Below, one piece after another: positions 1,313 to 18,597 of a stretch of 18,597 nucleotides of DNA (its first letter is position 1; each line of letters opens with the position of its first letter). This stretch comes from Sedimenticola sp. Its GTDB lineage: Bacteria > Pseudomonadota > Gammaproteobacteria > Chromatiales > Chromatiaceae. The DNA lies in assembly GCA_040505955.1 (NCBI GenBank), contig JBEVXT010000432.1:1-18597 (forward strand), read 5' to 3'. The translations under genes and the position numbers were made by a program. The notes beneath the pieces were generated by a model, which saw only the letters and a program-made list of their open reading frames with translations, was not told where the DNA came from and did not search any database.

Positions 1313-1349
1313 CGGGTAACTATTCAGCACAGTAATCCAGAACTCAGGC

Positions 1350-1413: not shown

Positions 1414-1561
1414 AACACCTCTGTTCCACCATCACTGTGGTTTTCAGGATTTTGCTACAGAGCCGGTTTAAGGATAAAAAGACACAAAATGCGTGTTTAT
1501 GCGTGCAGATGATTATTTTTTAACACTGAAGAAACACCCACTCGGGATACTTCCCTATTGA

Positions 1562-3058: not shown

Positions 3059-3134
3059 AACCGTTTCAACCGCTCAGTGGTTTCTGGATCGAGGAAACCG
3101 GTAATCGTTGCTTCCGTTTCGCGCCGCAGTGCGG
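3032..3134. repeat. Direct repeat DR1: a ~103-bp copy, ~96% identical, of the 3' end of the enoyl-CoA hydratase gene plus ~20 bp of its downstream sequence
   Basis: 3032-3134 reads atccgcccccattttttcctcagttaaaaccgtttcaaccgctcag...cgcgccgcagtgcgg. It aligns with 13235-13338 with 3 substitutions and 1 indel, and the sequences diverge immediately outside. The repeat ends in the palindrome CCGCAGTGCGG. Confidence 0.85.
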
Positions 3135-3311
3135 TTGGGTTGGAGACAACCAAAACCAAGAGCAGAAGAATGCTTACAAGTCGGCTTGGCGGTTTCTCCT
3201 TATGTGACCGTTGATGACAGTAGGTGTTCTATTCTCGGACAGGCTCCTAAATGTCTCCTTTTGGCATGAGTTATACCGGACAGTAGTGAGTGAAAATAAT
3301 ACTTCTCTGAA

Positions 3312-6300
3312 TCACTCATTATCTTCACCACTTGGCTTTTTTCTCTTCGGCGCATAGCGCTTTGTTTTTACCTGTTCGATACTTTTTAAATCATCACGTA
3401 GTGTTCGAATTTCCGAAAAGATGTCGACCATATTCTGCTGGGTTTTTAGGTCGATTTTCAGTTTACCCTCCATCGAATGAACCAGTGGGTAGATGCTGTG
3501 TTCGAATGTGTCTGCGATAACCGAGAGGATTTTACTGAGCCCAGGCACCGGTTGATTGACCACTTCAATATTGTAATCGACGTTTTGCAGTGCCTCCCTG
3601 ACTCTGCCGATCTCGGCAACCACGCTTTCCCGCCCCTCTTTTTCTGATATATCAGCCACTGGCGAGAGCCGTTGATCCAGAAGTGTGGCAATGGTTTCCA
3701 TGCTTTTTCCCAAATCATAGAGTTGGGATACCACCTTGGCACCACTGTCGGCATCATCACCACCGAGACTTCTGTTTTTCAGAAATGCCTGAAGAATTTC
3801 AGCCCAGCGCTGCCGTTCCTGTTCTGTTTGGTTGCCTCGTAGTTCCGCCAGTTTAAGCAGGTTCTCCTCTGCCCCGGATGTCAGCAGTTGTGCCTCTCCG
3901 AGATAGTGGTCGCTGATCATCTGCATCAGCTCTTGGTTATTCATTACGGCTGATACTTTTTCAGCCATCTTATTCATGTTGCGATAGCTGCCCTGTAGTT
4001 TGAAGGTCGGCTCTGTGCGATATCTGTCATCTTGTGCGGCAGAGGCGATATAGCGTTGATTGACCTTCAGCACAATATCCCGAATCTGGTAGAGCTTTTT
4101 CAGCACTTCGACAATTTCGTTGATCTCCGCGCCACTGTATTGATGTGCCAACTCGGTGCTGGCGATGTTTTTCCCCTTTGCCATCTGCATCAGTTTATAG
4201 ACATCGTCCATCTCTCTGGTGGCAAGTGGTGCCAGTACTCGGTTGGAGGTCAGGCAGTTCTCGATATAGCTGGAGGCAAACTGCGCTTGCATACCGCCCA
4301 GAATGTCACCCAGGTTATAGATATCGGCACGATTTGCCAGCATATCCGGTACCTTGAACACTTCGCCCGATTCGGTATAGGGATTGCCAGCCATGACCAG
4401 ACAGAATTTCCGCCCTCTCATATCGTAGGTTCTTGTTTTGCTTTTCCAAACCCCTTCGATCCTGCGGGTACCATCACCAAGGGAGATGAATTTTTGCAGA
4501 AACTCGGGATTGGTGTGCTGGATATCATCGAGATAGAGCATCACGTTATTACCCATCTCGAAGGCCAGGTTGAGCTTTTTCAACTCCTGTGCTGCAGTGG
4601 CATTCGGTGCCTGGGCAGGATCCAGTGACAATACGCTGTGGCCAAGCGAAGGGCAGTTGATTTTCATAAAAATCAGGCCCAGCCTGCTGGCTACATACTC
4701 CATCAAAGTGGTTTTACCGTAACCGGGTGGCGAGATCATCATCAACAGCCCCATCAGATCGGTGCGCTTGCCTTCACCGATACTCCCCATCTGCTTTGCC
4801 AGATTGTCACCAATCACCGGCAGGTAGGCATCGTTGATCAACCGGTTTCTGACAAAGGAGCTGAGTGGCTTGGCCTTGAACTCTTCGAGATGAAGCCCCT
4901 CCCGCTCTTCGCTGATGATCTGGTGACGGGTTTTTAGATAGCGATGGTAGCCGGGTATTACAACCGCCTGGTGGTGTTGCTGGCGGAGCAAGAAATCATC
5001 CAGCGAAAACTGTAGTGTCTGTTTTTTTATTCTGGAGTGGTCACCCAGCAAGCCAGTTATGGTCAGCTCAATATCGGCTTCTGTGGATCTGCGGTCGATG
5101 CGCTCATCACTATTGATAAGTGCGACTGCTTCTGGAATATAGCCCGCCAGCCTGCTGAGCTGTTTACTCTCCACCAGCGCTTCCAGCCAGGCTTCAGTGA
5201 GTGCCCAGCGCTGTGCCACTCTGCCTTTAAGCTTATCCAGAGATGTCTGGTACTTACGCCATGATGAATCGGTCAAAGCTCGCTTCAGCTCATCGGCCAG
5301 TTCTCTGGCGTAGCGACTGACGATAAATTCGGCTCGCTCTCTACCCAACTCCGCAACCAGGTAACCGGCCGCACGCTGAATATCGAGCGCTGACACCGGA
5401 ATGACATGCGTTTCGAGAAAGAGGGTCAGTGACTGCTCCACTTCCGCCACCAGCAGTTGAATCGCCTTCGACTGACTGAGTTCGTGACGCATCTGATAGG
5501 CTGACTGAGCACGCTCGGGCCAGCTCTTGTGGGTGAAGTTAAATGTTGCACTTTGAGTCGATCCGGGCTGCAGGTTGGCCCAGAATATCTGAGCCAAACC
5601 CCGACTGAGCGGATCATAGCGCAGCAGGTCACCCCGCTCCAGGGCAGGCAACAGCTGTTTTAAAATAAGTGCGGCATCATGATCATGCACCCCCTTCTCA
5701 TATCCTTCCTTGTAACGGGGAGAGGAGAACTCCCTTGCCAGCTTCAACAGCCCGCTCTCATCACTCAATAGCCCGGTCAGACGCTCTGTGGTGAGGTTAC
5801 TCTCCTGCCTTTCTGCTGCCTCGATGATCAGATTGGCCAGATACTCACCCCGATAGAGCTGAGGGCTCTCGGATTCCAGCGGCATCTCCCAATATTGCCG
5901 TAGCGCCATCAGTTGACTGTTTTCGATCGGCTCGAAAAACTCGGTTCCGGTCAGGTGCAGGTTCAACTCCCCATCACGAGGAATGATGGTCAGGTCTAAC
6001 TCCTGGGTGTTAACACTGAAGCGATGGCGTGGCCCCAACCTGATGACTTGACCACCCGCCTCGTAGATCTCGGACTTATCCCTCAGTGAGCGAAGTGCCT
6101 GTTCTTTGATCGATTTAAAGCGCGCTTCGACATCATCCGCCTTTACCCGGCTGTCCAGTTCACCCAGGCGCTCTACCAACTCCCGCACCTTGATCACCAG
6201 GGCATCCGATGCAAAGTAGGTATTCAACTCATCCGCTTCGGTAAACTTTAGTGAGCGTCGTTCAATATTACTGAGGATACGGGATGCGGCATCGGCCACA

Positions 6301-8627
6301 GACTGTGCCTTACGCTGTCGCTCATCCAGCAGTTGTTGTTTGTGCGTTTCAAAGGATTCATAGAGCTCTTCCCGCTTTGCCATAATATCGGCAAGGAACT
6401 CGTCATGATCACTGAATTGGCTCTCCAGCTCTTCGAGTTGCACCAGCAGACGTGACAGTTGCTCATCACAACGCTCTGGGGTGGTGGCCATTCCGAGGGC
6501 GTTGGAGATACTTTGGGAGAAGAGTTTAAACTGTGCGCTGAACTGGGCTACCGCCTCTTCTGAACCAAGACTTTTCTGTTTATGCCTAGCACTGGCTTTG
6601 CTTTGATTGAGCTGAGAGTAGATTCCCGATATGGCGTCAATAATGCGCGTTCTAACGGTAGCATCCTGCACTTTGAGGGTGGTCATCAACTCAGACAACA
6701 GGTCAAGTCCCGATGCTGTGGATTCAATCACTTCAATCAGGGGCGTCAACAGGGCGATGGTATCCGCCTTTTTCACCTCTCTGTTCAGATTGTCTATCTT
6801 ATCCTGATAGGGCGACAACGCATCCTCTGAAGCCAGAAAGGTGATGGTTCTCCCGCTCAGACTTTCCTGACGCTTTATTAGCTCCTGATCCAACACATCT
6901 ATACGCTGAAGGTCGATATAGCGATGCTCACGAATCGTAGTCAGATGCCCTCTTTGATGACGAAGGCTATCCAGGGCCCGCACATAATCCTCTGCTGTAT
7001 GCCAGCTATCAGGCTGGATACTACGCAGGATCTCCTGCTGCTTTGCCTCCGCCTCTGCCATGCTCTTTTTTGATTGTCGGCGGATACTTTCAACTTTCTC
7101 AAACTCATCGATCACCAGCTCTGCCGTCGTTGCAATTTCATGCACGATAGTGGCTATCTCATCGACCTCTTCATCCTCAATCCAGTAGTGGTCGTCAAAC
7201 AGGCCCTGGGAGGATTTATTGAGATCTTCGTAGTGGCGTACCGATACCTCCTGATTCTCGATAATTCGACTGATGCTGAAGAGGCTGGATATACCCCGCA
7301 CCAGTTCGGCATTGCCGATGCGCCCCATAAAGCTCTGGCTGGCAGGCGTCTGACTGGCAAACTCCTGGCTTGTATAGGGGGTACTCCATACCTGCATGGG
7401 ATGGATGCGGGTCGGCTCACTTTCCGCAGAGAAGATAATGATGGTGCCATCCTCAGCCAAGGCATAACCGTGCCCAAGTATGGGTGTTTTCAACGCCTTG
7501 TTAATCAGGTTATAACCGAACAGTGCGACCTCACCGGCCTCGCGCTCATAGAATATGTAGAGCACATCTTCACCGTTGGGAGAGCGGACAACCCGTTTGA
7601 TGGTATATCCGGACAGGCCATCATCAAAGGTTTTGTATTCACCATTTTGCAGATAGTAACCACCGGGAAATGCAATGCCGTGATCTTCAGGCAGTTGCAC
7701 ACAGGAGTCACCGATCGCATCTATGCGGATAACACTTTGGGTCTGGGTGTTGAATACCAGATAGCGCCAGTTCTCTTCTCGATAGGGACGTATCTTCAGA
7801 AGAATAAGGGAGCCGATCTCTGCGTAGTGGATAGCCGCGTCGTCCAGAGACTGGGTCTTGTCTTCCACCGGTTCCCGGTAGATACCCAAACCATCCTTTG
7901 TGTTGTTCTCAACCTTGATCGTTAGATCTCCGGTGACGGTTTCAACAAATACTTTATCGAGGATGGAAACGTGGGGATGCGGACCATTGACAATATCTTC
8001 ACGGGTGGTTTCACTCCACTCAAAGTCGTGGGCAGGAGGCAGTTGAATATCTCGTTCACCACGATTATCCATGTAGGTAACTTCGCTGCCATCTGCGGAA
8101 ACAGACCAACGGAATACACGCAGATCATCCAAACGCTCGCCGATCTGAAAACCCGCCAGTAGCTTCCCCTGTTTGACTGTAAGTTCTACCAGACGCGTGT
8201 GTTTGTAGTAGCGATAGAGTTCTTCAAAATCTGTTCTGAAGTTTGCCTGATCCAAAAAGCTACCCGTGATGGAGGCCGCCTCGATCTCATAACCTGCCTT
8301 ACCACCATTAACATGAAACAGGGAAAATACATCGCTTATCCTGGTCTCCTTTTTCAGACCGATAAAAACGTTGTAGCCAAATAGCAGATACGTACCCACC
8401 TGAACAATGTCCCGGGCAACACTGTTGTTCTCGGTGCGAACACGAATACGTGCAGCCAGTTCCATGCCGGAACTTCCGAACTCACTCAGGCGGCTATCAT
8501 TAAGACGGGTGGTCGCTTGACTCAAGCGATTGCCCTGGTTCAGCAGCCGCTTACGAATCACCTCGTAAGCACCGCCTTCTGCAACCGCACTGTTAACAAT
8601 GCCGGTGGTATCTTCCTGCTGTACCAT
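3312..8627 (-). CDS. Giant 1771-aa protein with a beta-rich N-terminal domain (~aa 1-480), a long coiled-coil/helical region (~aa 500-1150), a single MoxR/AAA_5-type AAA+ ATPase module (~aa 1280-1480) and a helical C-terminal region
   Basis: Uninterrupted 5.3-kb ORF. An RBS AAGGA lies 9 nt upstream of the ATG at 8627. Walker A PPGYGKTTL is at nt 4704-4730 and Walker B MLYLDDIQH at nt 4517-4540. The downstream segment CLVMAGNPYTESGEVFKVPDMLANRADIYNLGDIL matches the MoxR/AAA_5 pattern (xATxNP...LPxALxxRF). The central region is rich in E/L/R/Q heptad-like sequence. The gene is transcribed in the same direction as the flotillin gene and separated from it by 214 nt. Confidence 0.85.
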   Translation of the reverse strand: MVQQEDTTGIVNSAVAEGGAYEVIRKRLLNQGNRLSQATTRLNDSRLSEFGSSGMELAARIRVRTENNSVARDIVQVGTYLLFGYNVFIGLKKETRISDVFSLFHVNGGKAGYEIEAASITGSFLDQANFRTDFEELYRYYKHTRLVELTVKQGKLLAGFQIGERLDDLRVFRWSVSADGSEVTYMDNRGERDIQLPPAHDFEWSETTREDIVNGPHPHVSILDKVFVETVTGDLTIKVENNTKDGLGIYREPVEDKTQSLDDAAIHYAEIGSLILLKIRPYREENWRYLVFNTQTQSVIRIDAIGDSCVQLPEDHGIAFPGGYYLQNGEYKTFDDGLSGYTIKRVVRSPNGEDVLYIFYEREAGEVALFGYNLINKALKTPILGHGYALAEDGTIIIFSAESEPTRIHPMQVWSTPYTSQEFASQTPASQSFMGRIGNAELVRGISSLFSISRIIENQEVSVRHYEDLNKSSQGLFDDHYWIEDEEVDEIATIVHEIATTAELVIDEFEKVESIRRQSKKSMAEAEAKQQEILRSIQPDSWHTAEDYVRALDSLRHQRGHLTTIREHRYIDLQRIDVLDQELIKRQESLSGRTITFLASEDALSPYQDKIDNLNREVKKADTIALLTPLIEVIESTASGLDLLSELMTTLKVQDATVRTRIIDAISGIYSQLNQSKASARHKQKSLGSEEAVAQFSAQFKLFSQSISNALGMATTPERCDEQLSRLLVQLEELESQFSDHDEFLADIMAKREELYESFETHKQQLLDERQRKAQSVADAASRILSNIERRSLKFTEADELNTYFASDALVIKVRELVERLGELDSRVKADDVEARFKSIKEQALRSLRDKSEIYEAGGQVIRLGPRHRFSVNTQELDLTIIPRDGELNLHLTGTEFFEPIENSQLMALRQYWEMPLESESPQLYRGEYLANLIIEAAERQESNLTTERLTGLLSDESGLLKLAREFSSPRYKEGYEKGVHDHDAALILKQLLPALERGDLLRYDPLSRGLAQIFWANLQPGSTQSATFNFTHKSWPERAQSAYQMRHELSQSKAIQLLVAEVEQSLTLFLETHVIPVSALDIQRAAGYLVAELGRERAEFIVSRYARELADELKRALTDSSWRKYQTSLDKLKGRVAQRWALTEAWLEALVESKQLSRLAGYIPEAVALINSDERIDRRSTEADIELTITGLLGDHSRIKKQTLQFSLDDFLLRQQHHQAVVIPGYHRYLKTRHQIISEEREGLHLEEFKAKPLSSFVRNRLINDAYLPVIGDNLAKQMGSIGEGKRTDLMGLLMMISPPGYGKTTLMEYVASRLGLIFMKINCPSLGHSVLSLDPAQAPNATAAQELKKLNLAFEMGNNVMLYLDDIQHTNPEFLQKFISLGDGTRRIEGVWKSKTRTYDMRGRKFCLVMAGNPYTESGEVFKVPDMLANRADIYNLGDILGGMQAQFASSYIENCLTSNRVLAPLATREMDDVYKLMQMAKGKNIASTELAHQYSGAEINEIVEVLKKLYQIRDIVLKVNQRYIASAAQDDRYRTEPTFKLQGSYRNMNKMAEKVSAVMNNQELMQMISDHYLGEAQLLTSGAEENLLKLAELRGNQTEQERQRWAEILQAFLKNRSLGGDDADSGAKVVSQLYDLGKSMETIATLLDQRLSPVADISEKEGRESVVAEIGRVREALQNVDYNIEVVNQPVPGLSKILSVIADTFEHSIYPLVHSMEGKLKIDLKTQQNMVDIFSEIRTLRDDLKSIEQVKTKRYAPKRKKPSGEDNE
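4180..4800 (-). other. AAA+ ATPase module of the giant protein (Walker A GYGKTT, Walker B LDD, sensor/NP motif)
   Basis: The motifs were read directly from the translation. It is a single AAA module, not a tandem pair. The NP(x)ESG / ANRADI arrangement indicates the MoxR/dynein-like AAA_5 clade rather than the classical Vps4/FtsH clade. Confidence 0.7.
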
Positions 8628-8733
8628 TATTTGATCCTTATTTAATCACCAAGGTAGCTACTTATCGATGTACTGAATAGTGGGTGTCTTTCTGAAAACA
8701 GGTAGCCTTACACCCCGTACGATGGTGCTGCAA

Positions 8734-8760
8734 CACAGATCACGGCAGTGGTGATCTGTG
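8734..8760. promoter_or_regulatory. Perfect 10-bp stem / 7-nt loop hairpin (CACAGATCAC-ggcagtg-GTGATCTGTG) in the flotillin-to-AAA+ spacer; no U-tract, so not a classical terminator
   Basis: Exact inverted repeat read from the sequence. It lies ~80 nt downstream of the flotillin stop and ~105 nt upstream of the giant gene start. It is a candidate RNA processing/stability element or protein-binding site. Confidence 0.5.
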
Positions 8761-8794
8761 TTACCTCTGGTAAAAATACCCTCTTGACGGGGTA

Positions 8795-8817
8795 TTGAAT
8801 AGTTACAAACTATTCAA
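8795..8817. promoter_or_regulatory. 23-bp AT-rich perfect palindrome TTGAATAGTT-ACA-AACTATTCAA, 25 nt downstream of the flotillin stop; candidate dimeric-regulator site
   Basis: Exact palindrome. Its half-site GAATAGTT(AC) is the same motif that recurs at 1315-1328, 3019-3032, 10821-10834, 10932-10944 and 8672-8685. Confidence 0.5.
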
Positions 8818-8841
8818 TATGTATAAAGAGCGAGACGCTCT

Positions 8842-10785
8842 TCACTCGCGATTAGCGCTCTCTTTGTCACTACGACTATCGATAAGCTTTTCCAGCAAGG
8901 CGGTAACCAGGCCACTCTTGCTACTGAAACCATCGACGGCCTTTCCCAGCGAGAGTGATTTGGCAAAGGTATCGAAGAAGTGTCCTTCACCGCCCACGAT
9001 GTCAATATTGGCGGCTTTAAGTGCATTGGAAAGTACCCCGGCATTCTCTCTGGCAACCTCTTTACCTGCATCAATGGAAGCAACCGCCTCTTTGAATGCG
9101 GTCTCCAGACCCATACGGAACTCTTCATGGTCACGGGCCTTGTCGCTCATGCTATCCATGGCTTCAAACTTATCCACCAGGCCCTCGGCCTCGGCCTTGA
9201 ACTGCTCGCGTGTAACATCCGCCTCAGCCATACCGATCTTCTTCACCGCATTTGCTTCGGCGCTGCCTTTTGCGTCGATAACACTGGCCTCTGCCCCACC
9301 CTGTGCTCCGGTGACTTTCGCTTCCGACTCACCTTTGGCATCGATTACGCGGGCTTCAGCCAGCCCCTCTTTCTCCAGCGCATCGGCCTTTGCCTCCTGT
9401 ACCTTGGCTTCCGCAAGACCTGGTGCTGCCACCTCGGCCTGTACACCCTCAGCCAGTTTCTTCTTACCATCCGCCTCCTTGGCAACCGCCTCAAGTTCTG
9501 CCTGAGCGATGGTGGTAATCTCATTGGCGCGGTGTTTTGCGGAAAGTTCTTCCGCTTCAGCCGCTTTCACCAGTTTCACCTTCTCTTCATCTGCCTGGGC
9601 TTCCGCCCCAAGCACCTGTACCTGCTTGGCACGATCTGCCTCTGATACCTCACGCACCTCTTTGATGCGCTCCTCCTCGATGGCAACTGTTTTATCGACT
9701 ACCACCCGCTCTCGAATCACATTGGCAATCTCTTTCTTCTCCAGTTCGATCGCCTTCTCAGCTTCAATACTCTGCAACTCAACTTCACGTTCACGGGAGA
9801 CGATCTCCAGATCCTTGGCCCGGGTTACTTTCTCCACTTCGATCACAACTGCACGCTGGCGGTTCTGCTCCGCCACCTCAATCTCACGCTGCTGATTCTC
9901 CTTCTGAACCGCTAAATCCTGATCAGTAGAAATGGTGGCCGATTCAGATTTCTTTCGCTCCTCCTCCTGAATGCGGATGGTCTCCGCCTCTTCCCTTGCT
10001 TGTATGCTTGCCACCTCTCTTGCCTGCTTCGCCTCCGCATCTGATTGCTGGCGCTCCAGCTCAAGCATCGATTCAATGGTTTCGACATTCTTCTTCTTGA
10101 TCGCTAACTCTTCATCCCGCTCAAGTATATTGGTGTGTATATTTTGAGCAGCTGTCAGGGCTGTGATTTTTTTGATACCTTCGGCATCGAGGATATTGTT
10201 TGGATCAAGGGATGATTTCGGCGTCTGTTCAAGATAGTCAATTGCGACATCCTCAAGCACATAGCCGTTCAGATCATCACCGATCACTTCAATGATTTTC
10301 TCTCGGAATTCCAGACGATTTTCAAACAGCTGTACAAACTCTATCTGCTTACCAACAGTTTTCAATGCTTCTGAAAATTTGGCATTGAACAACTGCTCTA
10401 CCGACCCCTTGTCAGATGCCCTGTCGGCACCCAGAGACTTAGCCACCTTGAGCACATCTTCTGCGGTCTCATTCACTCTGAGATAGAATGCAACGGTAAT
10501 GTCTGCACGCATATTATCTGCACATATCAGCCCATCTTTTCCCCGGCGATCAACCTCAAGGGTAATCAGGGAGACCCGCATCAACTCCTTCTTATAGATA
10601 ATCGGGTAGACCAACGCACCGGTAAAGTGCACCTTTGGCTTGGCGCTCATGTCATTCACGATCAGGGCCGTACCCTGATCAACCTTGATATAGAATGCCT
10701 TGAACAGTATCGCCAACCCCATCAGGATTGCGAAAAATATTCCAGCACCAGTAGCTATCGGCATAAGTACAGATAAATCAGCCAT
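8842..10785 (-). CDS. yqiK: Flotillin-like SPFH/band-7 protein (YqiK family), 647 aa, with an N-terminal TM helix and a long A/E/K-rich C-terminal repeat region
   Basis: N-terminal membrane anchor IATGAGIFFAILMGLAILF. SPFH-core-like segment (...MRADITVAFYLRVNE...). Extended EA-repeat coiled coil, with tandem units AEARVIDAKGESEAKV / AEASVIDAKGSAEANA at nt ~9250-9360. RBS GGAG lies 8 nt upstream of the ATG. The gene order NfeD then flotillin matches the yqiJK pair. Confidence 0.85.
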   Translation of the reverse strand: MADLSVLMPIATGAGIFFAILMGLAILFKAFYIKVDQGTALIVNDMSAKPKVHFTGALVYPIIYKKELMRVSLITLEVDRRGKDGLICADNMRADITVAFYLRVNETAEDVLKVAKSLGADRASDKGSVEQLFNAKFSEALKTVGKQIEFVQLFENRLEFREKIIEVIGDDLNGYVLEDVAIDYLEQTPKSSLDPNNILDAEGIKKITALTAAQNIHTNILERDEELAIKKKNVETIESMLELERQQSDAEAKQAREVASIQAREEAETIRIQEEERKKSESATISTDQDLAVQKENQQREIEVAEQNRQRAVVIEVEKVTRAKDLEIVSREREVELQSIEAEKAIELEKKEIANVIRERVVVDKTVAIEEERIKEVREVSEADRAKQVQVLGAEAQADEEKVKLVKAAEAEELSAKHRANEITTIAQAELEAVAKEADGKKKLAEGVQAEVAAPGLAEAKVQEAKADALEKEGLAEARVIDAKGESEAKVTGAQGGAEASVIDAKGSAEANAVKKIGMAEADVTREQFKAEAEGLVDKFEAMDSMSDKARDHEEFRMGLETAFKEAVASIDAGKEVARENAGVLSNALKAANIDIVGGEGHFFDTFAKSLSLGKAVDGFSSKSGLVTALLEKLIDSRSDKESANRE

Positions 10786-10965
10786 AACAGTTTCTCCATT
10801 TCCTTTTAGTTAACTATTTTGGTAACTATTCAGCGGATGTGAAGTATAGTTCGGGATCGGAGTCGATTGCGGCAAGAAACTACAAATTCCCCTACCATCT
10901 TCAACCCAATCAACTCCGACCCCGTACCCAACTGATATAGTTACGCTCGAATTATTGTAAATACA

Positions 10966-11658
10966 CTATATTCCAGAAAACTCTTTTTCTGAAATGACGT
11001 GGTAGATATTTTCATTCTCCAGGTACTCAATGAGCACAACACTATCACCTCTTTTGAATACCTGTTCTCCGATAGTCCGCACCTTCAATATCAACCCCGC
11101 ACCACCATCTTCCAGCGTCGCTTCTCCAAAGTGATGATCAACTCTTGAGGTTCGAACAACCGCAATCTGCCCCAATACAATTTTTTCTGTATGCTGCTGC
11201 GCCTTGTTGAACAGCTGACGCAAGGGTCTTATAACAACGGCTGTAATCATGGTCGCAACAAACAGTGAGGCGATGAATATTGGAATACCTGCCAGGTACT
11301 TCAGTACTCCCTCTGGAAAAAATCCCAGAAGAAAATAGACCAGGTAGTAACAGAGAAGCCATCCAAACAGTGATATAAACGAGACAGTGATGGTGACAGG
11401 AACACCATGAAGTCCAAATTTCATCATCAGCCCGGCTAATGCATCAGGCGTGGGTATCTCACTATCCGCATTGAGACCAGTAGGGCCGTCGAAATCAGGA
11501 AGGTCAATATCAAGGATATCGATATCCACCAGTCCCAATACGGCCACTAACCAGTAGAGCGCAACCAGCGCCAAAAAAAAGGTGAAAATGGCTGTTGGGA
11601 AGGATGAAATATTCTGATAAAACGGATCCATCCCTTCATTTAGGAATATCGCAAACAT
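10966..11658 (-). CDS. yqiJ: NfeD-like membrane protein (YqiJ / DUF1449-like): N-terminal multi-TM region plus C-terminal OB-fold-like domain
   Basis: Hydrophobic helices (FTFFLALVALYWLVAVLGLV, VSFISLFGWLLCYYLVYFLLGFF, IFIASLFVATMITAVVI). A C-terminal beta-rich tail (IVLGQIAVVRTSRVDHHFGEATL...GDSVVLIEYLENENIYHV) is typical of short NfeD partners of SPFH proteins. RBS GAGG lies 5 nt upstream of the ATG. The gene sits immediately upstream of the flotillin gene. Confidence 0.7.
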   Translation of the reverse strand: MFAIFLNEGMDPFYQNISSFPTAIFTFFLALVALYWLVAVLGLVDIDILDIDLPDFDGPTGLNADSEIPTPDALAGLMMKFGLHGVPVTITVSFISLFGWLLCYYLVYFLLGFFPEGVLKYLAGIPIFIASLFVATMITAVVIRPLRQLFNKAQQHTEKIVLGQIAVVRTSRVDHHFGEATLEDGGAGLILKVRTIGEQVFKRGDSVVLIEYLENENIYHVISEKEFSGI

Positions 11659-11706
11659 GCTTACCTCACAACTGATGCTTAAGAAATGCTAGCTGGCTAT
11701 TCGATA

Positions 11707-12396
11707 TTACCTGTTTTTTCGCTTCAGGCGCGCAAGAATATCATCCGCACTGCTGCTTTTGGCCGTGATACCCGCCTCTTCGAGTTTCGTCTGAAGCGTT
11801 GACTCAGAGCTCTCTTCTGCCAACTCAGCAGCGGCTGTCATCTGCGCACCTTTTAACGCCTGCTTCTCCTTAATGCGCTCAAGGGAATCCATCGCTGTAC
11901 GCAGTTTGGTATTGGAGCCACTATGGCGCTCAGCAACTGCCTGCTGTGCACGCTGTACACTCTCAGTAGCCTTGACCGTATCAACCTGCTGCTTGAGTCG
12001 TTTAATATTGCCCTCTGCCTGCTGTATTGCCAGGCGCAACATTATTGAACTCTGGGCATAGCCGATCCCGGACTCAGTCTCCAGCTGCAGCTGATTCTCT
12101 ATATGGGCTATTTTTTCAGCAACCTCTTGAGCAAGATTTTCGTCACCTTTATCGAGAGCCTTAAGCGCATACTCCTCGTACTCTTTGACCTGACTTTTCA
12201 GTTTACTGCCCTTCTCTTCAGAGAGTTTCTGGTGCGCCATGATGGCAGCCAGGCCATTCCTGGACTGCTTGAGTTCTTCGGAGGCGTCGCGCACCTCCTG
12301 ATCCAGAATTCGAAGTGCCTGACTGTCAATGATCGCTTCACCCGCCTCATTTGCGCCGCCACGGAGTGCGGTCAACATTTTTGCCCAAACATTCAT
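11707..12396 (-). CDS. PspA/IM30/Vipp1-family protein (YjfJ-like; ESCRT-III superfamily), 229 aa
   Basis: The translation MNVWAKMLTALRGGANEAGEAIIDSQALRILDQEVRDASEELKQSRNGLAAIMA... shows the characteristic PspA N-terminal amphipathic helix followed by a long coiled coil and a basic C-terminus (ILARLKRKNR). The start was set at the second in-frame ATG (12396; 1-nt gap after the upstream stop) on homology to PspA N-termini. The alternative ATG at 12417 would overlap the upstream gene by 20 nt. Confidence 0.8.
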   Translation of the reverse strand: MNVWAKMLTALRGGANEAGEAIIDSQALRILDQEVRDASEELKQSRNGLAAIMAHQKLSEEKGSKLKSQVKEYEEYALKALDKGDENLAQEVAEKIAHIENQLQLETESGIGYAQSSIMLRLAIQQAEGNIKRLKQQVDTVKATESVQRAQQAVAERHSGSNTKLRTAMDSLERIKEKQALKGAQMTAAAELAEESSESTLQTKLEEAGITAKSSSADDILARLKRKNR

Positions 12397-12397
12397 T

Positions 12398-13036
12398 TCA
12401 GATTGCCCCTTTAGCATCGACCTGGATATTCAAGTACTCACTGTAAGCTTCGGTCGCCTGAATTACATTGCTGGCCAGCACCTCTATCTCGAAAACAACG
12501 CTGGTAAGAATAGAGCTCGAACTCAGTGCGCCAAACATATGGTAGTAATCATCATCTCCCGACATGCTGTCCAAGCTCACCGAGGAGAGTGGAAAGTACT
12601 TATGGGTTCGAAGTAGGGTTTCATTAAATGCAGACGGGTCTTTTACATCTGAAATCGCCCACAACACCACTTCTGCAATAATCTGTTCGCCGGAAACCGT
12701 CAGGAAGATCGGTAGATCACCGTACTCATGCATGACAATATGCAGCGAAGACTCAATCCCTTCGATCAATTCAAGTGAAGCCTGTCCAGTGGTAAATAAC
12801 TCCACATTCTGCAGTGCTTCGTAGAGAGTAGTAGTGGTCCATTCCGGTGATTTCATGGTCATCATTTCTTCTCCTGGTGACGTAGTAGAGAGATCGGCCT
12901 TTCGTAAATGTTTTTCCAGCGCTGCCAGTCGTTTGGCATTTTCAGGCCGTATCCAGATCTCTTTTTTAACCAACCCCTGCTCACGCAGCTTTCTTCTATA
13001 TTCTCGTTGGTAATACGCTGAAGTTTTCTTGCTCAT
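12398..13036 (-). CDS. First gene of the operon: YjfI-like (DUF2170-like) protein with an extra ~55-aa highly basic N-terminal extension
   Basis: The position immediately upstream of a YjfJ-type PspA gene mirrors E. coli yjfI-yjfJ. The C-terminal ~150 aa (from MMTMKSPEWTTTTLYEALQN...) is compatible with DUF2170 size. The N-terminus MSKKTSAYYQREYRRKLREQGLVKKEIWIRPENAKRLAALEKHLRKAD is Lys/Arg-rich and looks like a small DNA-binding (RHH/Arc-like) module. The DUF2170 assignment is from context and memory, not alignment. Confidence 0.45.
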   Translation of the reverse strand: MSKKTSAYYQREYRRKLREQGLVKKEIWIRPENAKRLAALEKHLRKADLSTTSPGEEMMTMKSPEWTTTTLYEALQNVELFTTGQASLELIEGIESSLHIVMHEYGDLPIFLTVSGEQIIAEVVLWAISDVKDPSAFNETLLRTHKYFPLSSVSLDSMSGDDDYYHMFGALSSSSILTSVVFEIEVLASNVIQATEAYSEYLNIQVDAKGAI

Positions 13037-13043
13037 AATCCGT

Positions 13044-13072
13044 ATTATAGAATATTACATGTAAGCTGTCAA
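13044..13072 (-). promoter_or_regulatory. Consensus sigma70 promoter for the yjfI-like to AAA+ operon: -35 TTGACA (13067-13072), 17-bp spacer, -10 TATAAT (13044-13049)
   Basis: The minus-strand reading is tttTTGACAgcttacatgtaatattcTATAATacggattATG. Both hexamers are perfect consensus with optimal spacing. The -10 ends only 7 nt before the ATG at 13036, which implies a leaderless or near-leaderless transcript. Confidence 0.65.
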
Positions 13073-13087
13073 AAACTTACATGTAAT
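13054..13087. promoter_or_regulatory. Operator-like twin palindromes: two copies of TTACATGTAA, centre-to-centre 22 bp, one overlapping the -35 flank and one inside the promoter spacer
   Basis: ATTACATGTAAG-ctgtcaaaaa-CTTACATGTAAT is a 12-bp inverted repeat. Each half contains the self-complementary decamer TTACATGTAA. No other copy occurs in the window. Confidence 0.6.
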
Positions 13088-13234
13088 TAAACTTCGTCCT
13101 AAGGTTGAACCCTCTGTCTTTAACCGGTGGTTGTTGAGTCTCATCTCATGCAGGTTTGAGTGATGCTCTTTTTTTGTCACGAACGAACTTTTTCCTTGCA
13201 TCACGGGGCGATCACTCGGGGTCGCCTAACATAA

Positions 13235-13338
13235 ATCCGCCCCGATTTTTTTCCTCAGTTAAAACCGTTTCAATCGCTCAGTGGTTTCTGGATCGAGGAA
13301 ACCGGTAATCGTTGCTTCCGTTTCGCACCGCAGTGCGG
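13235..13338. repeat. Direct repeat DR2: the partner of DR1, forming the authentic 3' end (last ~26 codons) and downstream flank of the enoyl-CoA hydratase gene
   Basis: Aligned with 3032-3134 as described for DR1. The 10.1 kb between the repeats holds the PspA/flotillin/AAA+ operon. Confidence 0.85.
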
Positions 13339-14020
13339 CATTGATATCTGTAGCTGCGCTCTGATTTAGCGCGCGTTTCATCGCACGCACAGAGAGTGGC
13401 GGAAGTGCGCTTAATTTTGCCGCCACCGCCTCTGCTTCATCGGCTAACTGGTCATCACTTACGACACGCCAGGCTACCCCCATCTTTAGCAGAGTTACGG
13501 CATCGTACTGCTCGCCAAGAAATAACATCTCGCGCGCTTTGTTAAGGCCTACCAGGGCAGGCAGTAGTGAGGTAACCGCTCCGGTAACGAACAGATTGAG
13601 CGATACCTCTGGGAAAAATGCGCGAGCGCTCTCCCCCCAGATTGGAAAATCACAATTTATCGCCCACTCAAAGCCCCCGCCAACCGCCCAACCATTAATG
13701 GCACCAACGACAGGCTTTGCACCATAGACAATCGAATGGGTGGCGCGTTGAATTGCATCTACAAACTCCCTTGCCTCTGACTCATTGGCGGGATGCACAT
13801 GGTTTCGTCGATCATCGCCAGCACAAAATCCACATCCCTTACCTGTAAAGATGATGGCTCGCGTCATTTCGTCGGCATTGGCATCATCAAATGCCAGGGC
13901 TACATCATCAATCAATTGGCGGTTCATTGCGTTGAGACTATCCGGACGGTTCAATGCAATGGTTCGGACACCGTTGTCTCCAAGAGTGCTCAGTATCGAT
14001 TTGTATTCAAAAGTACTCAT
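13259..14020 (-). CDS. Enoyl-CoA hydratase/isomerase (crotonase superfamily), 253 aa
   Basis: Crotonase signatures are present (FCAGDD oxyanion-hole region, GAINGWAVGGGFEWAINCDF). The start ATG overlaps the stop of the upstream ligase gene (TGATG), which indicates translational coupling. Confidence 0.85.
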   Translation of the reverse strand: MSTFEYKSILSTLGDNGVRTIALNRPDSLNAMNRQLIDDVALAFDDANADEMTRAIIFTGKGCGFCAGDDRRNHVHPANESEAREFVDAIQRATHSIVYGAKPVVGAINGWAVGGGFEWAINCDFPIWGESARAFFPEVSLNLFVTGAVTSLLPALVGLNKAREMLFLGEQYDAVTLLKMGVAWRVVSDDQLADEAEAVAAKLSALPPLSVRAMKRALNQSAATDINAALRCETEATITGFLDPETTERLKRF

Positions 14021-15323
14021 CAGTAATTCCTGATTACGCGTTTTGTTTTTCCTTCGGTTTTTGGGAAGCCGCCAGTCGGCAGCACACTTACCGTGGCACT
14101 CGCACCAAGGGCAGATTTAATGGCGCGGGAAACAGTCTCGGCCAGTGATCTGCTGTTCTCGTACCCTGGTGCCAACTCAACCTGCACAGGCAGCACGTCA
14201 TAAGGGGGTTTGGTATCCAACACAATACGGTAATCACCCGTTAGCTCTTCATGCTGATTCACCACGCTGGCGATCATGGTCGGGAAGATATTCAGGCCGC
14301 GTATCACCACCATGTCATCGCTGCGCCCCACCACCCGGAATCGCATGCCGTGGCGCCCGCAGCGACAGGGTTCTGTGGTATCCACCGCTATAATGTCACC
14401 CGTGCGAAAGCGCACCAACGGCTGGCACTCACGTTCCAGGTGCGTCAGTACCAGTTCGCCTTCGCTTCCTGATTCAATGGGCAGAGGTTCATTGCTCTCG
14501 GGGTCTATTATCTCTGGGTAGAGCACATCGCCTGCGAGAAAATGTAACCTTGTATCGTATTCGCACTGAGCCGCAAAGTTAGACAATACATCTGACACGC
14601 CATAATTTGCATTGCGCGGTTCCATCCCCCAGGTCTCTTTAATACGTTCCCGAAATGCCGGATCATCCAGACCCGCTTCACCACCAAAAAGACCGAGCCG
14701 CAGCCCAAGGTCGCGAGGCTTGAGTCCTGGATAGATATCAGCGATCACCCGCTCCAGCACGGCAGGGTAGGAGGGTGTGCAGGAGATGGCTGTAATGCCA
14801 ATTTCACGGATCGTCCGTACCAGTAACTCCGTCCCCCCAACCCCAAAGGGAACCACCATGGCACCGGTGTTTTCCAAGGTAAGGTGATCGCTTACGCCTC
14901 CCATCCACATTTGATAGTTCAGACAGTGGACTACAGTATCTTCAGGCGTTAATCCGGCTGCCCGATGGCTGCGCCCTCCGACGCTTTGGGTGATTTCGCA
15001 ATCCCGTTTTGACAGTGCAAGATTCATCGCTTGCCCGGTGGTACCTGAGGTGCGATGAAGTCGTGTTACCGCAGTGCGGTCAGTCGCAAGATAGTTACCA
15101 AACGGGGGATGTTCCGCCTGGGATTCGCGCAGCATGGATTTTAATGACAATGGTAGTGTTGATATCTCTTGTAACCGCTCTGGTGGTTGGGAGCCGTTCC
15201 ATAGGATTTGATAAAAGGGTGAGTTTTCAATGACCACCCGGCGCTGCCTTTCCCATGCCAATTGTTGATGATTTCTCATCTTTACAGCAGAGAGTGTTTC
15301 CGCATCATCTTTTAGTGTCATAT
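14020..15323 (-). CDS. Phenylacetate-CoA ligase-like (PaaK / coenzyme F390 synthetase family) adenylate-forming enzyme
   Basis: AMP-binding P-loop-like TSGTTGQAM is present. Overall colinearity with PaaK follows (N-terminal DDAETLSAV...QQLAWERQRR aligns with PaaK DPIETASVDELQALQTQRLKW; C-terminal GRSDDMVVIRGLNIFP). The ATG at 15323 is preferred over the in-frame TTG at 15342 by this N-terminal alignment. Confidence 0.8.
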
Positions 15324-15372
15324 GCTTGGTACCCGACTCCAATCGTCTTTACCATAAGCAGCTCTTCAACAA

Positions 15373-15744
15373 TTAAACCCTGAACCTCATATAGTTGGCA
15401 ATCTCATAGGCATCCGGCTTCCCCTCTTCATAACCGAAAAAGCAGATATCCTGTGCCGACCCCTTGCTTGAAGCGGCGATTCCAACAACAAATTCACACT
15501 TGTGTTCGGTGGCTTGACTATAGAGAAACTGCAGGGCTTTCTTTAGATCGGAGCGTCTCTTTGCCTCCAGATTGATTCCCAGATTCCAGAAGGATTCACC
15601 CGCTTCATCTTCACCAGGCTGGTGGCGATCATTAACCAGGGTGGCACTGCCGTCACTCTTTTTCACCCAACCGGCAATCGCCTCACTCATGGGCTCGGCA
15701 ATCGCTTCGAGGTCATCTGATTCAGCATAGATGTAAACTTTCAT
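15373..15744 (-). CDS. Small acidic hypothetical protein (~124 aa) between dctM and the ligase gene
   Basis: ORF with an AGGAG upstream of the ATG at 15744 (MKVYIYAESDD...). The longer track ORF (to 15792) would overlap dctM. No family was recognised. Confidence 0.5.
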   Translation of the reverse strand: MKVYIYAESDDLEAIAEPMSEAIAGWVKKSDGSATLVNDRHQPGEDEAGESFWNLGINLEAKRRSDLKKALQFLYSQATEHKCEFVVGIAASSKGSAQDICFFGYEEGKPDAYEIANYMRFRV

Positions 15745-15752
15745 GGGGCGGT

Positions 15753-17033
15753 TCAGCTCCTGCCCGGCAGCCATAGAGAGAGCGCGGGCCAATAGGTGAT
15801 AATAAGTACGGCAACAAGCAGAATCAGGAACCAGGGCAAGGTGGCCCGGTAGAGCTGCATCACCGGCTTGTTGAAGCGGTAGCTGGCAATAAAGAGGTTC
15901 ATCCCCACCGGCGGGGTGAAGTAGCCGATCTGCATGTTGGCGAGGAAGATGATACCGAAATGTACCGGGTCTACGCCATAGCCAATGGCGATGGGCAGCA
16001 GCAGGGGCAGCATTAAGACCAGGGCGGAGAAGATATCCAGCAGGGTGCCGAGCACCAGCAGAAAGAGGTTGAGCAGGATCAGAAAGGTGAGCTTGCTGCT
16101 GACCATCTCCTGCAGTGTCTCAAACAGGCGGGCGGGCACTTCCGCATCAATCAGGTAGTTGGTGGATGCCAGTGAGAGACCGAGAATGACCAGTATGCCG
16201 CCAACCATGATCATCGACTCCCGCATCACCTTTGGCAGTTGTCTGAAACCGATCTCACGTTTGATCAACACCTCGACGATAAAGAGATAGATCACGGTGA
16301 CCGCCGCTGCCTCGGAGATGGCGAAGAAGCCGCTGTAGATCCCCCCCAGCACCAGCAGGGGCAGCGGGATCTCCCACCCTGCCTCTTTAGCCGCAGCCAG
16401 CGCCTCAGCACTATTGAAGGGTATAGCTTCCTGGCCGCGACTGTTGTAGATGCTCCAGAGGGAGAGCAGCGCCAGCATCAGCAGTCCCGGCAGTATGCCG
16501 GCAAGGAACATGGCATTGACGGTAATGTTGCCGCCTGTTCCCAGTTGCTGTGCAATCACCGCATAGAGGATCAGCGGCAGCGCCGGGGCAAAGAGCAGGC
16601 CAAGACTGCCCGAGGTAGTGACCAGGCCGAGGCCGAAGTTCTCCTTGTAGCCGGACTGAGTGAGTGCAGGATAGAGCAGCGCACCCAGGGCGACGATGGT
16701 GACACCGGATGCACCGGTAAAGGCGGTAAAGAGCGCACAGGCGATCAGCGATACTATGGCCAGACCACCCGGCATCCAGCCGAGCAGTGCGTGGGTGAGA
16801 CGCACCAGGCGCTGGGGCGCGCTGCTCTCGCCCAGCAGATAGCCGGCAAAGGTGAAGAGCGGAATAGCCAGCAGGATCGGCATCTCGGCAATGCGAAAGA
16901 ACTCGATGGCGACAACCGAGAGATCCACTTCCGAGCGATAGAAACCGAGCATGGCACTGGCGGCGATAATGGTAAACAGCGGCGCACCCAGCAGCGCCAA
17001 CAGCAACAGTAGAAGGCCGATAAGGATCATCAT
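15753..17033 (-). CDS. dctM: TRAP transporter large permease subunit (DctM family), 426 aa
   Basis: Polytopic membrane protein with typical DctM composition. Its start overlaps the dctQ stop (ATGA). Confidence 0.85.
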   Translation of the reverse strand: MMILIGLLLLLLALLGAPLFTIIAASAMLGFYRSEVDLSVVAIEFFRIAEMPILLAIPLFTFAGYLLGESSAPQRLVRLTHALLGWMPGGLAIVSLIACALFTAFTGASGVTIVALGALLYPALTQSGYKENFGLGLVTTSGSLGLLFAPALPLILYAVIAQQLGTGGNITVNAMFLAGILPGLLMLALLSLWSIYNSRGQEAIPFNSAEALAAAKEAGWEIPLPLLVLGGIYSGFFAISEAAAVTVIYLFIVEVLIKREIGFRQLPKVMRESMIMVGGILVILGLSLASTNYLIDAEVPARLFETLQEMVSSKLTFLILLNLFLLVLGTLLDIFSALVLMLPLLLPIAIGYGVDPVHFGIIFLANMQIGYFTPPVGMNLFIASYRFNKPVMQLYRATLPWFLILLVAVLIITYWPALSLWLPGRS

Positions 17034-17509
17034 GGCGATGCCCCCCCTGCCGTCCGACCAAGCAGGGTGTGAAGCAAAAAACGGAGGCCCATAAGGGTAA
17101 AACCGATGGGGATAATCAGTTCGCAGAGCCAGGCGGGAATATTGAGAAAGAGTGTCGCACCCGCCTCCATCTCAAAAAGAACAAAGCGCAGGCCATGCCA
17201 GGCGACCAGCAGGCAGACGATAGCGGCAAAGCTGTCGGTAAGGCGGTGGATCCACCCTTTATGTCTCTCCGACAAGTAGTGGCTGATCACATCAATGCTG
17301 ATGTGGCGGCTGTCGCGGGCGGCAACCATCGCCCCCAGCAAACCAACCCAGAGCACCAGAATGCGCAGGGTGGGATCGGCCCAGACAAAACCGCCATCGA
17401 AGAGGTTGCGCAGAAATATCTGTGCACCTGAAAGCCCTATCATCGCTGTCAGTAGCGCAACCAGAAAGCCCTCTTCAATCAGCAGTAGTGCTTGCAGCAG
17501 GCGTTTCAT
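17030..17509 (-). CDS. dctQ: TRAP transporter small permease subunit (DctQ family), ~159 aa
   Basis: Four-TM small protein directly upstream of and overlapping dctM. The track ORF begins with GTG at 17512; the ATG is at 17509. Confidence 0.8.
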   Translation of the reverse strand: MKRLLQALLLIEEGFLVALLTAMIGLSGAQIFLRNLFDGGFVWADPTLRILVLWVGLLGAMVAARDSRHISIDVISHYLSERHKGWIHRLTDSFAAIVCLLVAWHGLRFVLFEMEAGATLFLNIPAWLCELIIPIGFTLMGLRFLLHTLLGRTAGGASP

Positions 17510-17516
17510 CACAATC

Positions 17517-17722
17517 GTAACTTCTCAATAAGTTCGTGCACCGGGCCCTGCCAACTGAGAAGGCCCACCTGACTGTAGGAGCGAACTTGTTCGCGATTAG
17601 CTTCGTAGAACACTCTTCGCGAACAAGTTCGCTCCTACGCTAAAAGTTTCGTAATCCCTCAATAATCCTGTGTAGTGGAACAACTCATACACCCCTATGG
17701 CACGGGCTTATTGAGAAGTTAC
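17517..17722. repeat. 206-bp MITE-like intergenic element: perfect 16-bp terminal inverted repeats GTAACTTCTCAATAAG / CTTATTGAGAAGTTAC enclosing REP copy 2, with a degenerate internal direct copy of the terminal repeat
   Basis: 17517-17532 is the exact reverse complement of 17707-17722. Similarity extends a further ~7 bp inward (CGTGC). 17651-17668 (gtaatccctcaataatcc) is a third, degenerate copy. The element fills the dctP-dctQ spacer. Confidence 0.65.
17575..17638. repeat. REP-like extragenic palindrome, copy 2 (same 22-bp arms as 1350-1413; the 20-nt loop differs but shares TTCGTAG)
   Basis: Arms 17575-17596 and 17617-17638 are exact reverse complements and identical to the arms of copy 1. 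Confidence 0.85.
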
Positions 17723-17735
17723 CTCACGATCACGT

Positions 17736-18597
17736 TTATTGTCTGAACTCTTTGAGTATTTTCTTTATTCTCATAAACAGCTCGACCGAGTAGGCGCCGT
17801 CTCTCCCCATCTCGTCTACTGCCCGATCCGTGGCGGCCCGCCACTTATCCATATCACCCAGGGCCGGGGTATTGAAGCGGATACCTTGCTTTTTAAGCGC
17901 CTCGCGGGCATTGATATTATCTTTTCTACTCTGCCTGTTGATTTTGTCGAAGACCTTGCGCATCTCCTGCTCAAGAGCATCTCGATCCACCGCAGAAAGC
18001 TTGCCGAGGGCCTTCTCATGGATCACCAGGCTGCCGTAGAGATAGAGCAGGGGGATATCGGTAAGATGTTTGATGCGGGTGTGCCACTGCAGGGTGATGG
18101 CACCAACGGGTGAGGTTCCCACCGTGTTGATCAATCCGGTCTGAAGGCCAGTGAGCACATCGGTCAGCGGCAGGGGGATGGGAGAGACACCTACCGCCTT
18201 GAAAGCAGCCTGACTGATGGGGTCGCCTTCGGGGGCCCACACCTTCTGCTGCTGTAGATCATTGAGGTTGTTGAGTTGGGTTGCCGACATCAGGTAGGCA
18301 AATCCCCCTTCGCTGAATCCGTAACTGGCAAAACCCTTCTCCCGGAGAGCCGTCTCGATCAGTGGATCCATCTGCTGGCGCACATAATCTACCTCGGCAA
18401 AAGAGCGGAAGAGAAAGGGCAGGCTGTAGAGGTTAAGATCGGGATTGATCGCCGCCAGACCACCCCCGGTAATCGCCCCACCGTGGAGTTGGCCAATGCG
18501 GATCTTACGCATCAGGCTCTTGTCGTTACCCATCACCCCGCCGGGGTAGAAGCGCAGCTTGACCCGCCCTTCGGTTCGCTTATCTATGACTCTTGCC
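17736..18597 (-). CDS. dctP: TRAP transporter solute-binding subunit (DctP family), 5'-partial because the N-terminus lies beyond the window end
   Basis: The reading frame stays open to the window edge (...ARVIDKRTEGRVKLRFYPGGVMGNDKSLMRKIRIGQLHGGAI..., which matches the early DctP region). The internal M listed in the track is not the true start. Confidence 0.75.
   Translation of the reverse strand, partial: ARVIDKRTEGRVKLRFYPGGVMGNDKSLMRKIRIGQLHGGAITGGGLAAINPDLNLYSLPFLFRSFAEVDYVRQQMDPLIETALREKGFASYGFSEGGFAYLMSATQLNNLNDLQQQKVWAPEGDPISQAAFKAVGVSPIPLPLTDVLTGLQTGLINTVGTSPVGAITLQWHTRIKHLTDIPLLYLYGSLVIHEKALGKLSAVDRDALEQEMRKVFDKINRQSRKDNINAREALKKQGIRFNTPALGDMDKWRAATDRAVDEMGRDGAYSVELFMRIKKILKEFRQ

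Follow-up and report, generated by a model that had tools for sequence, protein, structure and literature searches.

How is an operon switched on and off when the start codon of its first gene lies only 7 nucleotides (nt) behind a promoter that is itself overlapped by two identical palindromes? This question is raised by the bacA gene in a stretch of 18,597 nt from Sedimenticola sp. (contig JBEVXT010000432.1, positions 1 to 18,597), hereafter called the window, to which coordinates refer unless otherwise indicated. The reading that we consider likely is that a sigma70 promoter with two overlapping operators drives a leaderless mRNA of the bacABCDE operon, and that full-length BacA is the dedicated autorepressor of this operon, acting through its N-terminal domain. 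The elements concerned are the following.

13077..13086, minus strand: distal operator TTACATGTAA, exact decamer, at about -50 to -41 counted from the predicted start
13067..13072, minus strand: -35 hexamer TTGACA, identified by the promoter scan (12/12)
13055..13064, minus strand: proximal operator TTACATGTAA, exact decamer within the 17-nt spacer, at about -28 to -19
13044..13049, minus strand: -10 hexamer TATAAT, identified by the promoter scan
13034..13036, minus strand: ATG of bacA with the predicted transcription start (the A at 13036), leaderless by geometry

All elements that had been described for this region are present on the minus strand between 13086 and 13034, which reads 5' to 3' TTACATGTAA-gttt-TTGACA-gc-TTACATGTAA-tattc-TATAAT-acggatt-ATG. 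The textbook sigma70 consensus claimed in the original prediction is reproduced by the promoter scan with a spacer of 17 nt, and the two decamers are indeed identical, 22 base pairs (bp) apart from centre to centre, with one of them inside the spacer. The -10 hexamer likewise ends 7 nt before the ATG (ACGGATT lying between), yet the distal decamer does not abut the -35 hexamer as had been stated, given that 4 nt (gttt) intervene. The window contains two exact copies of the decamer and no more. With up to one mismatch allowed, there are three matches against 0.37 expected, a number reached in one of 200 shuffles, and by our own arithmetic about 0.002 perfect 12/12 promoters are expected in 18.6 kb on both strands. 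A chance origin of the promoter and decamers in the window is excluded. The G+C (GC) content is 28% in the promoter stretch and 51% in the window, and an Rfam scan of the whole window returned no match. Megablast of the region against E. coli genomes likewise gave no match, which shows that the DNA is not from E. coli. The third, one-mismatch copy of the decamer (TTACCTGTAA, 13839-13848) lies within the upstream enoyl-CoA hydratase gene and is probably there by chance.

The arrangement recurs outside the window. Conservation was assessed on 80 loci from a protein-first search plus the window (i.e., 81 loci, or 82 where Pseudomonas aeruginosa was added), which span Cellvibrionaceae, Spongiibacteraceae, Hahella, Oleispira, Methylococcales, Woeseia and others, with 6-18 kb of sequence per genome. 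In nearly all of these related loci, two or three YTACATGTRA palindromes surround the -35 hexamer, and the family operator consensus is aTTACATGTAAt. Between two and five ACATGT cores are present per locus from -200 to +30. The proximal core lies 25-26 nt ahead of the ATG in 63 of the 81 loci, and in most loci the next core lies 21-24 bp further upstream, these distances occurring in roughly equal numbers. The -35 hexamer between the two cores is kept across the family as TTGAca, with TTGA at the same position throughout, and a TAnnnT hexamer ends 6-8 nt ahead of the ATG in 69 of the 81 loci, TTGAca-17-TAnnnT being the family-wide form of the promoter. Together with the 12/12 score in the window, this supports the strong sigma70 promoter of the original prediction. 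Of the copies of YACATGTR in the 81 loci, 188 fall within the 121 nt that precede the bacA ATG and 5 within the other 512 kb, an enrichment of about 2000-fold. Such conservation, fixed position and enrichment argue for the earlier suggestion that the palindromes are repressor operators. The 22-bp same-face spacing attached to that suggestion is not strictly kept across the family, where it ranges over 21-24 bp. The perfect promoter consensus is peculiar to the window genome: exact TTGACA is found in 16 of the 81 loci and exact TATAAT in 2.

Some variants of the layout were observed. In four loci (L019, L025, L026 and L075, from two Hahella and two Cellvibrionaceae metagenome-assembled genomes (MAGs)), both palindromes lie upstream of or at the -35 hexamer and the spacer is empty. 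In another (L021, an Oleispira MAG), the promoter is shifted about 25 nt upstream, which leaves a short leader without an obvious Shine-Dalgarno (SD) sequence.

Start sites usually prefer a pyrimidine at -1 and a purine at +1. In the 81 loci the start codon is invariably ATG, an SD-like tetramer precedes it in 4, and the base before it is a pyrimidine in 79, which fits this preference with the A of the ATG as +1. In the window this base is a T, and no SD precedes the ATG. More direct evidence comes from P. aeruginosa, whose 66% GC genome has the same layout, TTACATGTGA-gctg-TTGAAA-tc-TTACATGTGA-tctcg-TAGTGT-gagtcc-ATG. Differential RNA sequencing (dRNA-seq) of strain PA14 (Wurtzel et al. 2012, PMC3460626, Table S3, transcription unit (TU) 841; PA14_16140/16150) placed the start site at 1374599 and the start of the open reading frame (ORF) at 1374776, with a 5' untranslated region (UTR) of 177 nt. 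The old annotated ORF corresponds to Met60 of the long ORF, 59 codons (59 x 3 = 177 nt) behind the upstream ATG, and the transcription unit ends 1153 nt beyond the annotated start in the TU 841 table as well as in the P. aeruginosa locus analysed here (L082). Given this agreement between the UTR length and the offset of Met60, the mapped PA14 start is the A of the upstream ATG, which is the 7th nt after the TAGTGT -10 hexamer. These 177 nt were listed as a 5' UTR since annotation of the gene had begun at an internal Met; they are the coding sequence of the N-terminal domain and linker. The proposal of a leaderless mRNA without SD is thus directly supported in the P. aeruginosa orthologue, and for the window we infer it from the identical geometry.

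A transcript that begins at the ATG would lead to translation of full-length BacA from leaderless mRNA, including an N-terminal domain that earlier annotation had left out. The gene and its two domains are placed as follows.

12398..13036, minus strand: bacA, 212 amino acids (aa), NCBIfam NF050185 'biofilm formation regulator BacA'
12896..13036, minus strand: basic N-terminal domain, codons 1-47, proposed to bind the operators (conservation, codon entropy, hhalign, AlphaFold 2 (AF2) model)
12431..12841, minus strand: DUF2170/CesT-like domain for dimerisation and partner binding, residues 66-202 (Pfam PF09938, E 1.2e-51; PDB 8q8o, E 1.7e-44)

The bacA frame is open over 204-220 aa in 82/82 loci, and 21 residues of codons 1-47 are invariant among 19 homologues. 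Codon-position entropy in the N-terminal region is 0.60, 0.37 and 1.39 bits at positions 1, 2 and 3, against 1.6 bits in all three phases of the upstream non-coding 60 nt, and this excess at the third position indicates that the region is translated. The window protein matches NF050185 with 313.4 bits (cutoff 300) over model positions 1-204 of 206. The chain of PDB 8q8o (146 aa) covers residues 65-204 of the window protein, the N-terminal domain being absent.

A profile search with the N-terminal domain found only 145 representatives among 1.84 billion proteins, including free-standing proteins of 44-70 aa. Both BacA and these free-standing proteins gave repeated sub-threshold matches to Pfam PF11455 (MazE-like antitoxin), NCBIfam UrfF ('plasmid repression protein F') and RepC (IncL/M plasmids). 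When 26 sequences of the BacA N-terminal type were compared with five PF11455 proteins by hhalign, a probability of 96% and an E-value of 4e-9 were obtained, which suggests that the domain is homologous to the PF11455 antitoxins, at the profile-profile level only. The AF2 model consists of a helix (6-19), an extended segment (20-30) and a second helix (31-47), with a confidence (pLDDT) of 87.6. Sequence searches of the PDB with the domain, its profile and a PF11455 protein gave no meaningful match, and a tblastn search of the domain against phages gave one weak match only.

Four sets of observations connect this domain with the palindromes. A DNA-first metagenome scan for TTACATGTAA-N10-16-TTACATGTAA returned 80 loci, five of which are bacA loci with the twin palindrome directly upstream. 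In five more, all of high GC content (L085, L086, L111, L139 and L148), GTTACATGTAAC occurs twice immediately upstream of a PF11455 gene (E 1e-22 to 1e-30); behind each such gene comes a PemK/MazF-like ORF that overlaps it; in L148 the order is operator, TTGACA, operator, with the ATG about 9 nt on. From the protein side, 12 plasmid PF11455 genes (L225-L236) were sampled from Alpha-, Beta- and Gammaproteobacteria and Mycobacterium, and palindromes of the GTTRCATGYAAC type were found within about 60 nt upstream of the start in 12/12. Plasmid pQBR103 (NC_009444.1; L084 3850-3950) encodes a YjfI protein with the N-terminal domain in an operon of the E. coli yjfIJKLMC type, and upstream of this gene TTACATGTAA and two degenerate copies are present, whereas E. 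coli yjfI itself has neither the domain nor the palindrome. The palindrome thus follows the N-terminal domain across unrelated gene contexts. The basic N-terminal domain of the first-gene product had been named in the original prediction as a candidate for binding to the palindromes, a choice that these results support. The pQBR103 yjfI gene has an SD and a 17-residue N-terminal extension and is not leaderless, and its operon includes a rhomboid protease gene. An attempt to read a module of plasmid pRAS3 as a classical pas system, whose PasA is an experimentally proven autorepressor and would have belonged to the same family, was rejected: the pasA of pTC-F14 is annotated as a DUF6290 gene with a RelE/ParE toxin.

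These results can be combined with what is published on the P. aeruginosa orthologue. Proteomics showed that a bacA mutant accumulates BacB-F, which the authors read as negative control (PMC10948618). This phenotype, together with the association of palindrome and domain, makes BacA itself the most probable repressor, and binding of BacA to its own operators would most likely explain the published derepression. In the proposed mechanism, transcription from the sigma70 promoter would begin on the A of the bacA ATG or no more than one nucleotide away from it, and the basic domain of about 47 residues would bind the two TTACATGTAA palindromes and exclude RNA polymerase, giving negative autoregulation; a protein bound to the operator in the spacer would occlude the polymerase. 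Since the spacing of 21-24 bp is near two helical turns and is not fixed, two flexibly linked dimers fit better than rigid same-face cooperativity. The C-terminal BacA domain dimerises in the crystal (PDB 8q8o; PMC10948618), and an interaction between BacA and BacB, the product of the next gene, is predicted by AF2 with a probability of 0.98 (PMC13092808). The CesT-like DUF2170 domain would accordingly serve both to dimerise and, as predicted, to bind the PspA-like BacB. Repression would likely be released by an altered contact between BacA and BacB once damaged membrane attracts BacB. This step is modelled on the toxin co-repressors of antitoxins and on PspA-PspF. BacB may modulate repression, with membrane stress shifting BacB away from BacA; the direction, co-repressor or anti-repressor, could be either. 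The envelope-stress signal suggested in the original prediction fits the adjoining PspA/IM30 gene.

A feature absent from the original prediction is an internal translation start in the linker between the two domains, composed of two elements.

12870..12875, minus strand: internal SD, AGGAGA, codons Pro54-Gly55-Glu56 (GGAG conservation)
12860..12865, minus strand: internal ATG-ATG (Met58, Met59), where a short isoform is proposed to begin (Met59 invariant)

The sequence in the window is ccAGGAGAagaaATGATG (12875-12860, minus strand). Its P. aeruginosa counterpart, GGAGAAGGAGGAagacATG (L082 6160-6180), is the old start of PA3732/PA14_16140 at Met60. GGAG is found 5-16 nt before the linker Met in 71/82 loci, against a background of 8.3% for SD-like tetramers before other ATGs. 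Where the GGAG is in frame, it arises in 66/66 cases from a GGA glycine codon and a next codon whose first base is G, and GGA accounts for only 20% of the glycine codons in bacA genes. The residue pair encoded there varies (GE, GV, GG, GD or GA). These values point to selection that acts on the nucleotides, in favour of an internal ribosome-binding site. In a passage of PMC4066749 that cites Brencic & Lory 2009, RsmA is reported to bind the region of the internal SD in P. aeruginosa. Given the conserved SD and ATG, a second BacA isoform is predicted that consists of DUF2170 only and has about the size of E. coli YjfI; it probably exists, lacking the putative DNA-binding domain. This short BacA could titrate BacB or form heterodimers that do not bind DNA. 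As a tentative extension, which we regard as possible rather than probable, one leaderless mRNA would yield two BacA proteins, the long one being the operator-binding repressor and the short one an anti-repressor acting through mixed dimers or competition for BacB. If so, the balance between leaderless and SD-dependent initiation would fix the set-point of the operon, and RsmA in Pseudomonas, or stress that favours leaderless translation, could for example adjust it; a domesticated antitoxin DNA-binding domain would then serve an envelope-stress circuit that has a translational input.

Several observations weigh against BacA as the operator-binding repressor of a leaderless sigma70 promoter. 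The window N-terminal domain scores 15.1-16.5 bits against PF11455, below the gathering threshold of 22, and its model resembles no solved structure, so no fold is assigned to it. The mapped start site is that of P. aeruginosa and not of the window organism. The operator spacing, varying over 21-24 bp, does not support strict face-of-helix cooperativity. A literature search found no binding experiment for BacA or for any PF11455 protein. Moreover, 70 of the 80 metagenome loci and all 20 viral contigs carry the decamer pair with no such domain nearby, which means that the decamer is not exclusive to the domain. These twin TTACATGTAA contigs, which have no ORF of the BacA N-terminal or PF11455 type close by, would suit an arrangement in which the palindromes are operators of a different, unlinked regulator and BacA acts through protein-protein contacts only. 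Wallart et al. 2024 (PMC10948618) called BacA a 'possible regulator' and put forward a sigma54 promoter together with chaperone-like contacts between proteins, describing no DNA binding. Nevertheless, we consider an unlinked regulator unlikely, because the palindrome tracks the N-terminal domain through bacABCDE, the yjfIJKLMC operon of pQBR103 and the PF11455-MazF modules (four classes), and is missing at E. coli yjfI, where the domain is missing too. Nor is any other regulator gene conserved beside the operon, as the genes upstream of it are not the same in the window as in P. aeruginosa. The strong, conserved internal SD and ATG would equally allow the upstream ATG to be unused, with bacA starting at Met58/59 and the first 170-odd nt forming a 5' UTR, i.e., a gene that is not functionally leaderless; the old annotation and the crystallised protein begin there, and the RsmA report concerns this same region. 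Against this stand the codon periodicity and the 21 invariant residues of codons 1-47, the open frame in all 82 loci, and the encoded peptide, which is apparently homologous to PF11455 and forms part of the NCBIfam BacA model; an unused upstream ATG is thus very improbable.

It could also be supposed that a sigma54 promoter with an enhancer-binding activator drives the operon, as in the classical psp system, and that the sigma70-like hexamers are incidental. The E. coli pspA gene is a precedent for a sigma54-driven psp operon. That a sigma54 promoter was proposed for bacA of P. aeruginosa in PMC10948618 speaks against our reading. However, a minus-strand search of 13037-13258 that allowed as many as 3 mismatches found no site resembling TGGCAC-N5-TTGCW, the PA14 start maps 7 nt after a TAnnnT -10 hexamer, and the -35/-10 geometry is kept in the 81 loci, which leaves a sigma54 promoter little chance. 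The decamers might finally act as DNA or RNA structure (a cruciform, terminator or attenuator) instead of as protein sites, and elsewhere they do form long hairpins, e.g., TTACATGTAAGGaaaaaTCCTTACATGTAA in contigs of about 39% GC. In the window, though, the sequence between the decamers is the -35 region, which is not self-complementary; the decamers lie upstream of the start site and hence not in the RNA; and the folding of the leaderless mRNA 5' region is unremarkable (z = -0.22). Such a structural role is extremely improbable, and an operator-binding BacA with a leaderless sigma70 promoter remains the preferred reading.

The genes behind this promoter, together with bacA, are those of a PspA-type operon.

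11707..12417, minus strand: bacB, PspA/IM30 family (Pfam PF04012, E 9e-47); coordinates are those of the longest ORF, and the true start may lie a few codons further in
10966..11658, minus strand: bacC-like ORF, 230 aa, no family match; position and size resemble PA3730
8842..10785, minus strand: bacD-like ORF, 647 aa, no family match; position and size resemble PA3729 (688 aa)
3312..8627, minus strand: bacE-like ORF, 1771 aa, with DUF3686, DUF7902 and AAA, the same Pfam set as P. aeruginosa BacE

By sequence and position, this gene set is assigned to the bacABCDE operon with the P. aeruginosa gene order. In that organism, BacA and BacB affect biofilm formation, rhamnolipid secretion, swarming and virulence. 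The P. aeruginosa bac operon (bacA-F, PA3732-PA3727) is the closest known system: the bacA genes are orthologous, the order of DUF2170, PspA, two unassigned ORFs and a DUF3686/AAA giant is shared, and so is the twin-palindrome promoter of the leaderless type; negative control by BacA was shown in P. aeruginosa. That operon differs in its promoter hexamers (TTGAAA and TAGTGT against the perfect consensus of the window), and the published crystal and old annotation are without the N-terminal domain, with the operator, sigma70 promoter and leaderless start not described there.

With the PF11455 antitoxins, BacA shares what appears to be a homologous basic helix-strand-helix domain and the palindromic core GTTACATGTAAC upstream of the genes concerned. 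Unlike them, BacA has no toxin partner, a CesT-like DUF2170 domain takes the place of the C-terminal toxin-binding tail, and the operon controlled is of the PspA type; the gene after bacA encodes PspA/IM30 and not PemK/MazF, so that the adjacent toxin expected of a type II antitoxin is lacking. E. coli yjfIJKLMC shares DUF2170, through YjfI, but not the N-terminal domain and palindromes. The E. coli Psp system (activator PspF, sigma54, and PspA as anti-activator) also has a PspA-family gene beside a regulator, which makes partner-switching plausible, but the bac operon has no sigma54 site and its regulator would be a repressor instead of an activator.

Repressors that control their own gene through operators overlapping its promoter are classical, as are leaderless repressor genes. 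The lambda cI mRNA transcribed from PRM begins at the repressor AUG, and the operators overlap the repressor's own promoter. The bacA gene would resemble cI in both respects. It differs in being the first of six genes in an effector operon instead of standing alone as a repressor gene, in the unrelated sequence of its product, and in a second start inside the gene that is led by an SD. Earlier publications already contain the PA14 start-site coordinate and the negative control by BacA. The literature search did not find the bac operator, the sigma70 leaderless promoter, the overlooked antitoxin-like domain, a family-wide operator of PF11455 or the dual-start design; nor did it find a published operator or structure for PF11455, on which there is almost no literature, and a full-text search for TTACATGTAA gave nothing relevant to bacteria.

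The present results offer a testable alternative to the sigma54/chaperone model, made up of a sigma70 leaderless promoter, an operator of 10-12 bp, and a putative DNA-binding domain missed by the annotation, the crystal and the reading of the transcriptome. Both the published BacA structure (8q8o) and the PA14 transcriptome table (TU 841) rest on the short annotation. In addition, a probable operator, GTTACATGTAAC, can be assigned to the whole PF11455 antitoxin family. The bac system would represent an antitoxin-type autorepressor module fused to a CesT-like chaperone domain and controlling a PspA-family membrane-stress system, a solution different from that of PspF and sigma54, the one system to which this comparison applies.

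Outside the operon, the genes upstream of the bac promoter (13259-18536, minus strand) encode an enoyl-CoA hydratase, an AMP-binding (phenylacetate-CoA ligase-like) enzyme and the TRAP transporter proteins DctP, DctQ and DctM. They are unrelated to the operon and differ from the P. aeruginosa neighbours. Downstream of bacE, about 880 nt (2429-3311) contain short ORFs only, with no Rfam match, before the next long minus-strand ORF (1562-2428, 288 aa), which has no Pfam match; a bacF equivalent, a pseudogene or some other element may occupy these 880 nt.

Two further settings of the decamer were encountered in the DNA-first scans. Metagenome contigs of about 39% GC (L094, L097, L102, L119, L120, L125, L127, L137, L146, L162 and others) carry recurrent intergenic hairpins, TTACATGTAAGGaaaaaTCCTTACATGTAA or tTTACATGTAAAGC-N6-GCTTTACATGTAAA, with no gene of the BacA N-terminal or PF11455 type nearby; they resemble a dispersed repeat or terminator family of one organism group. 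Several IMG/VR viral contigs (L206, L209, L213, L215-L217, L221 and L222) carry arrays of at least three TTACATGTAA-like repeats, possibly operator or iteron arrays of an unrelated protein.

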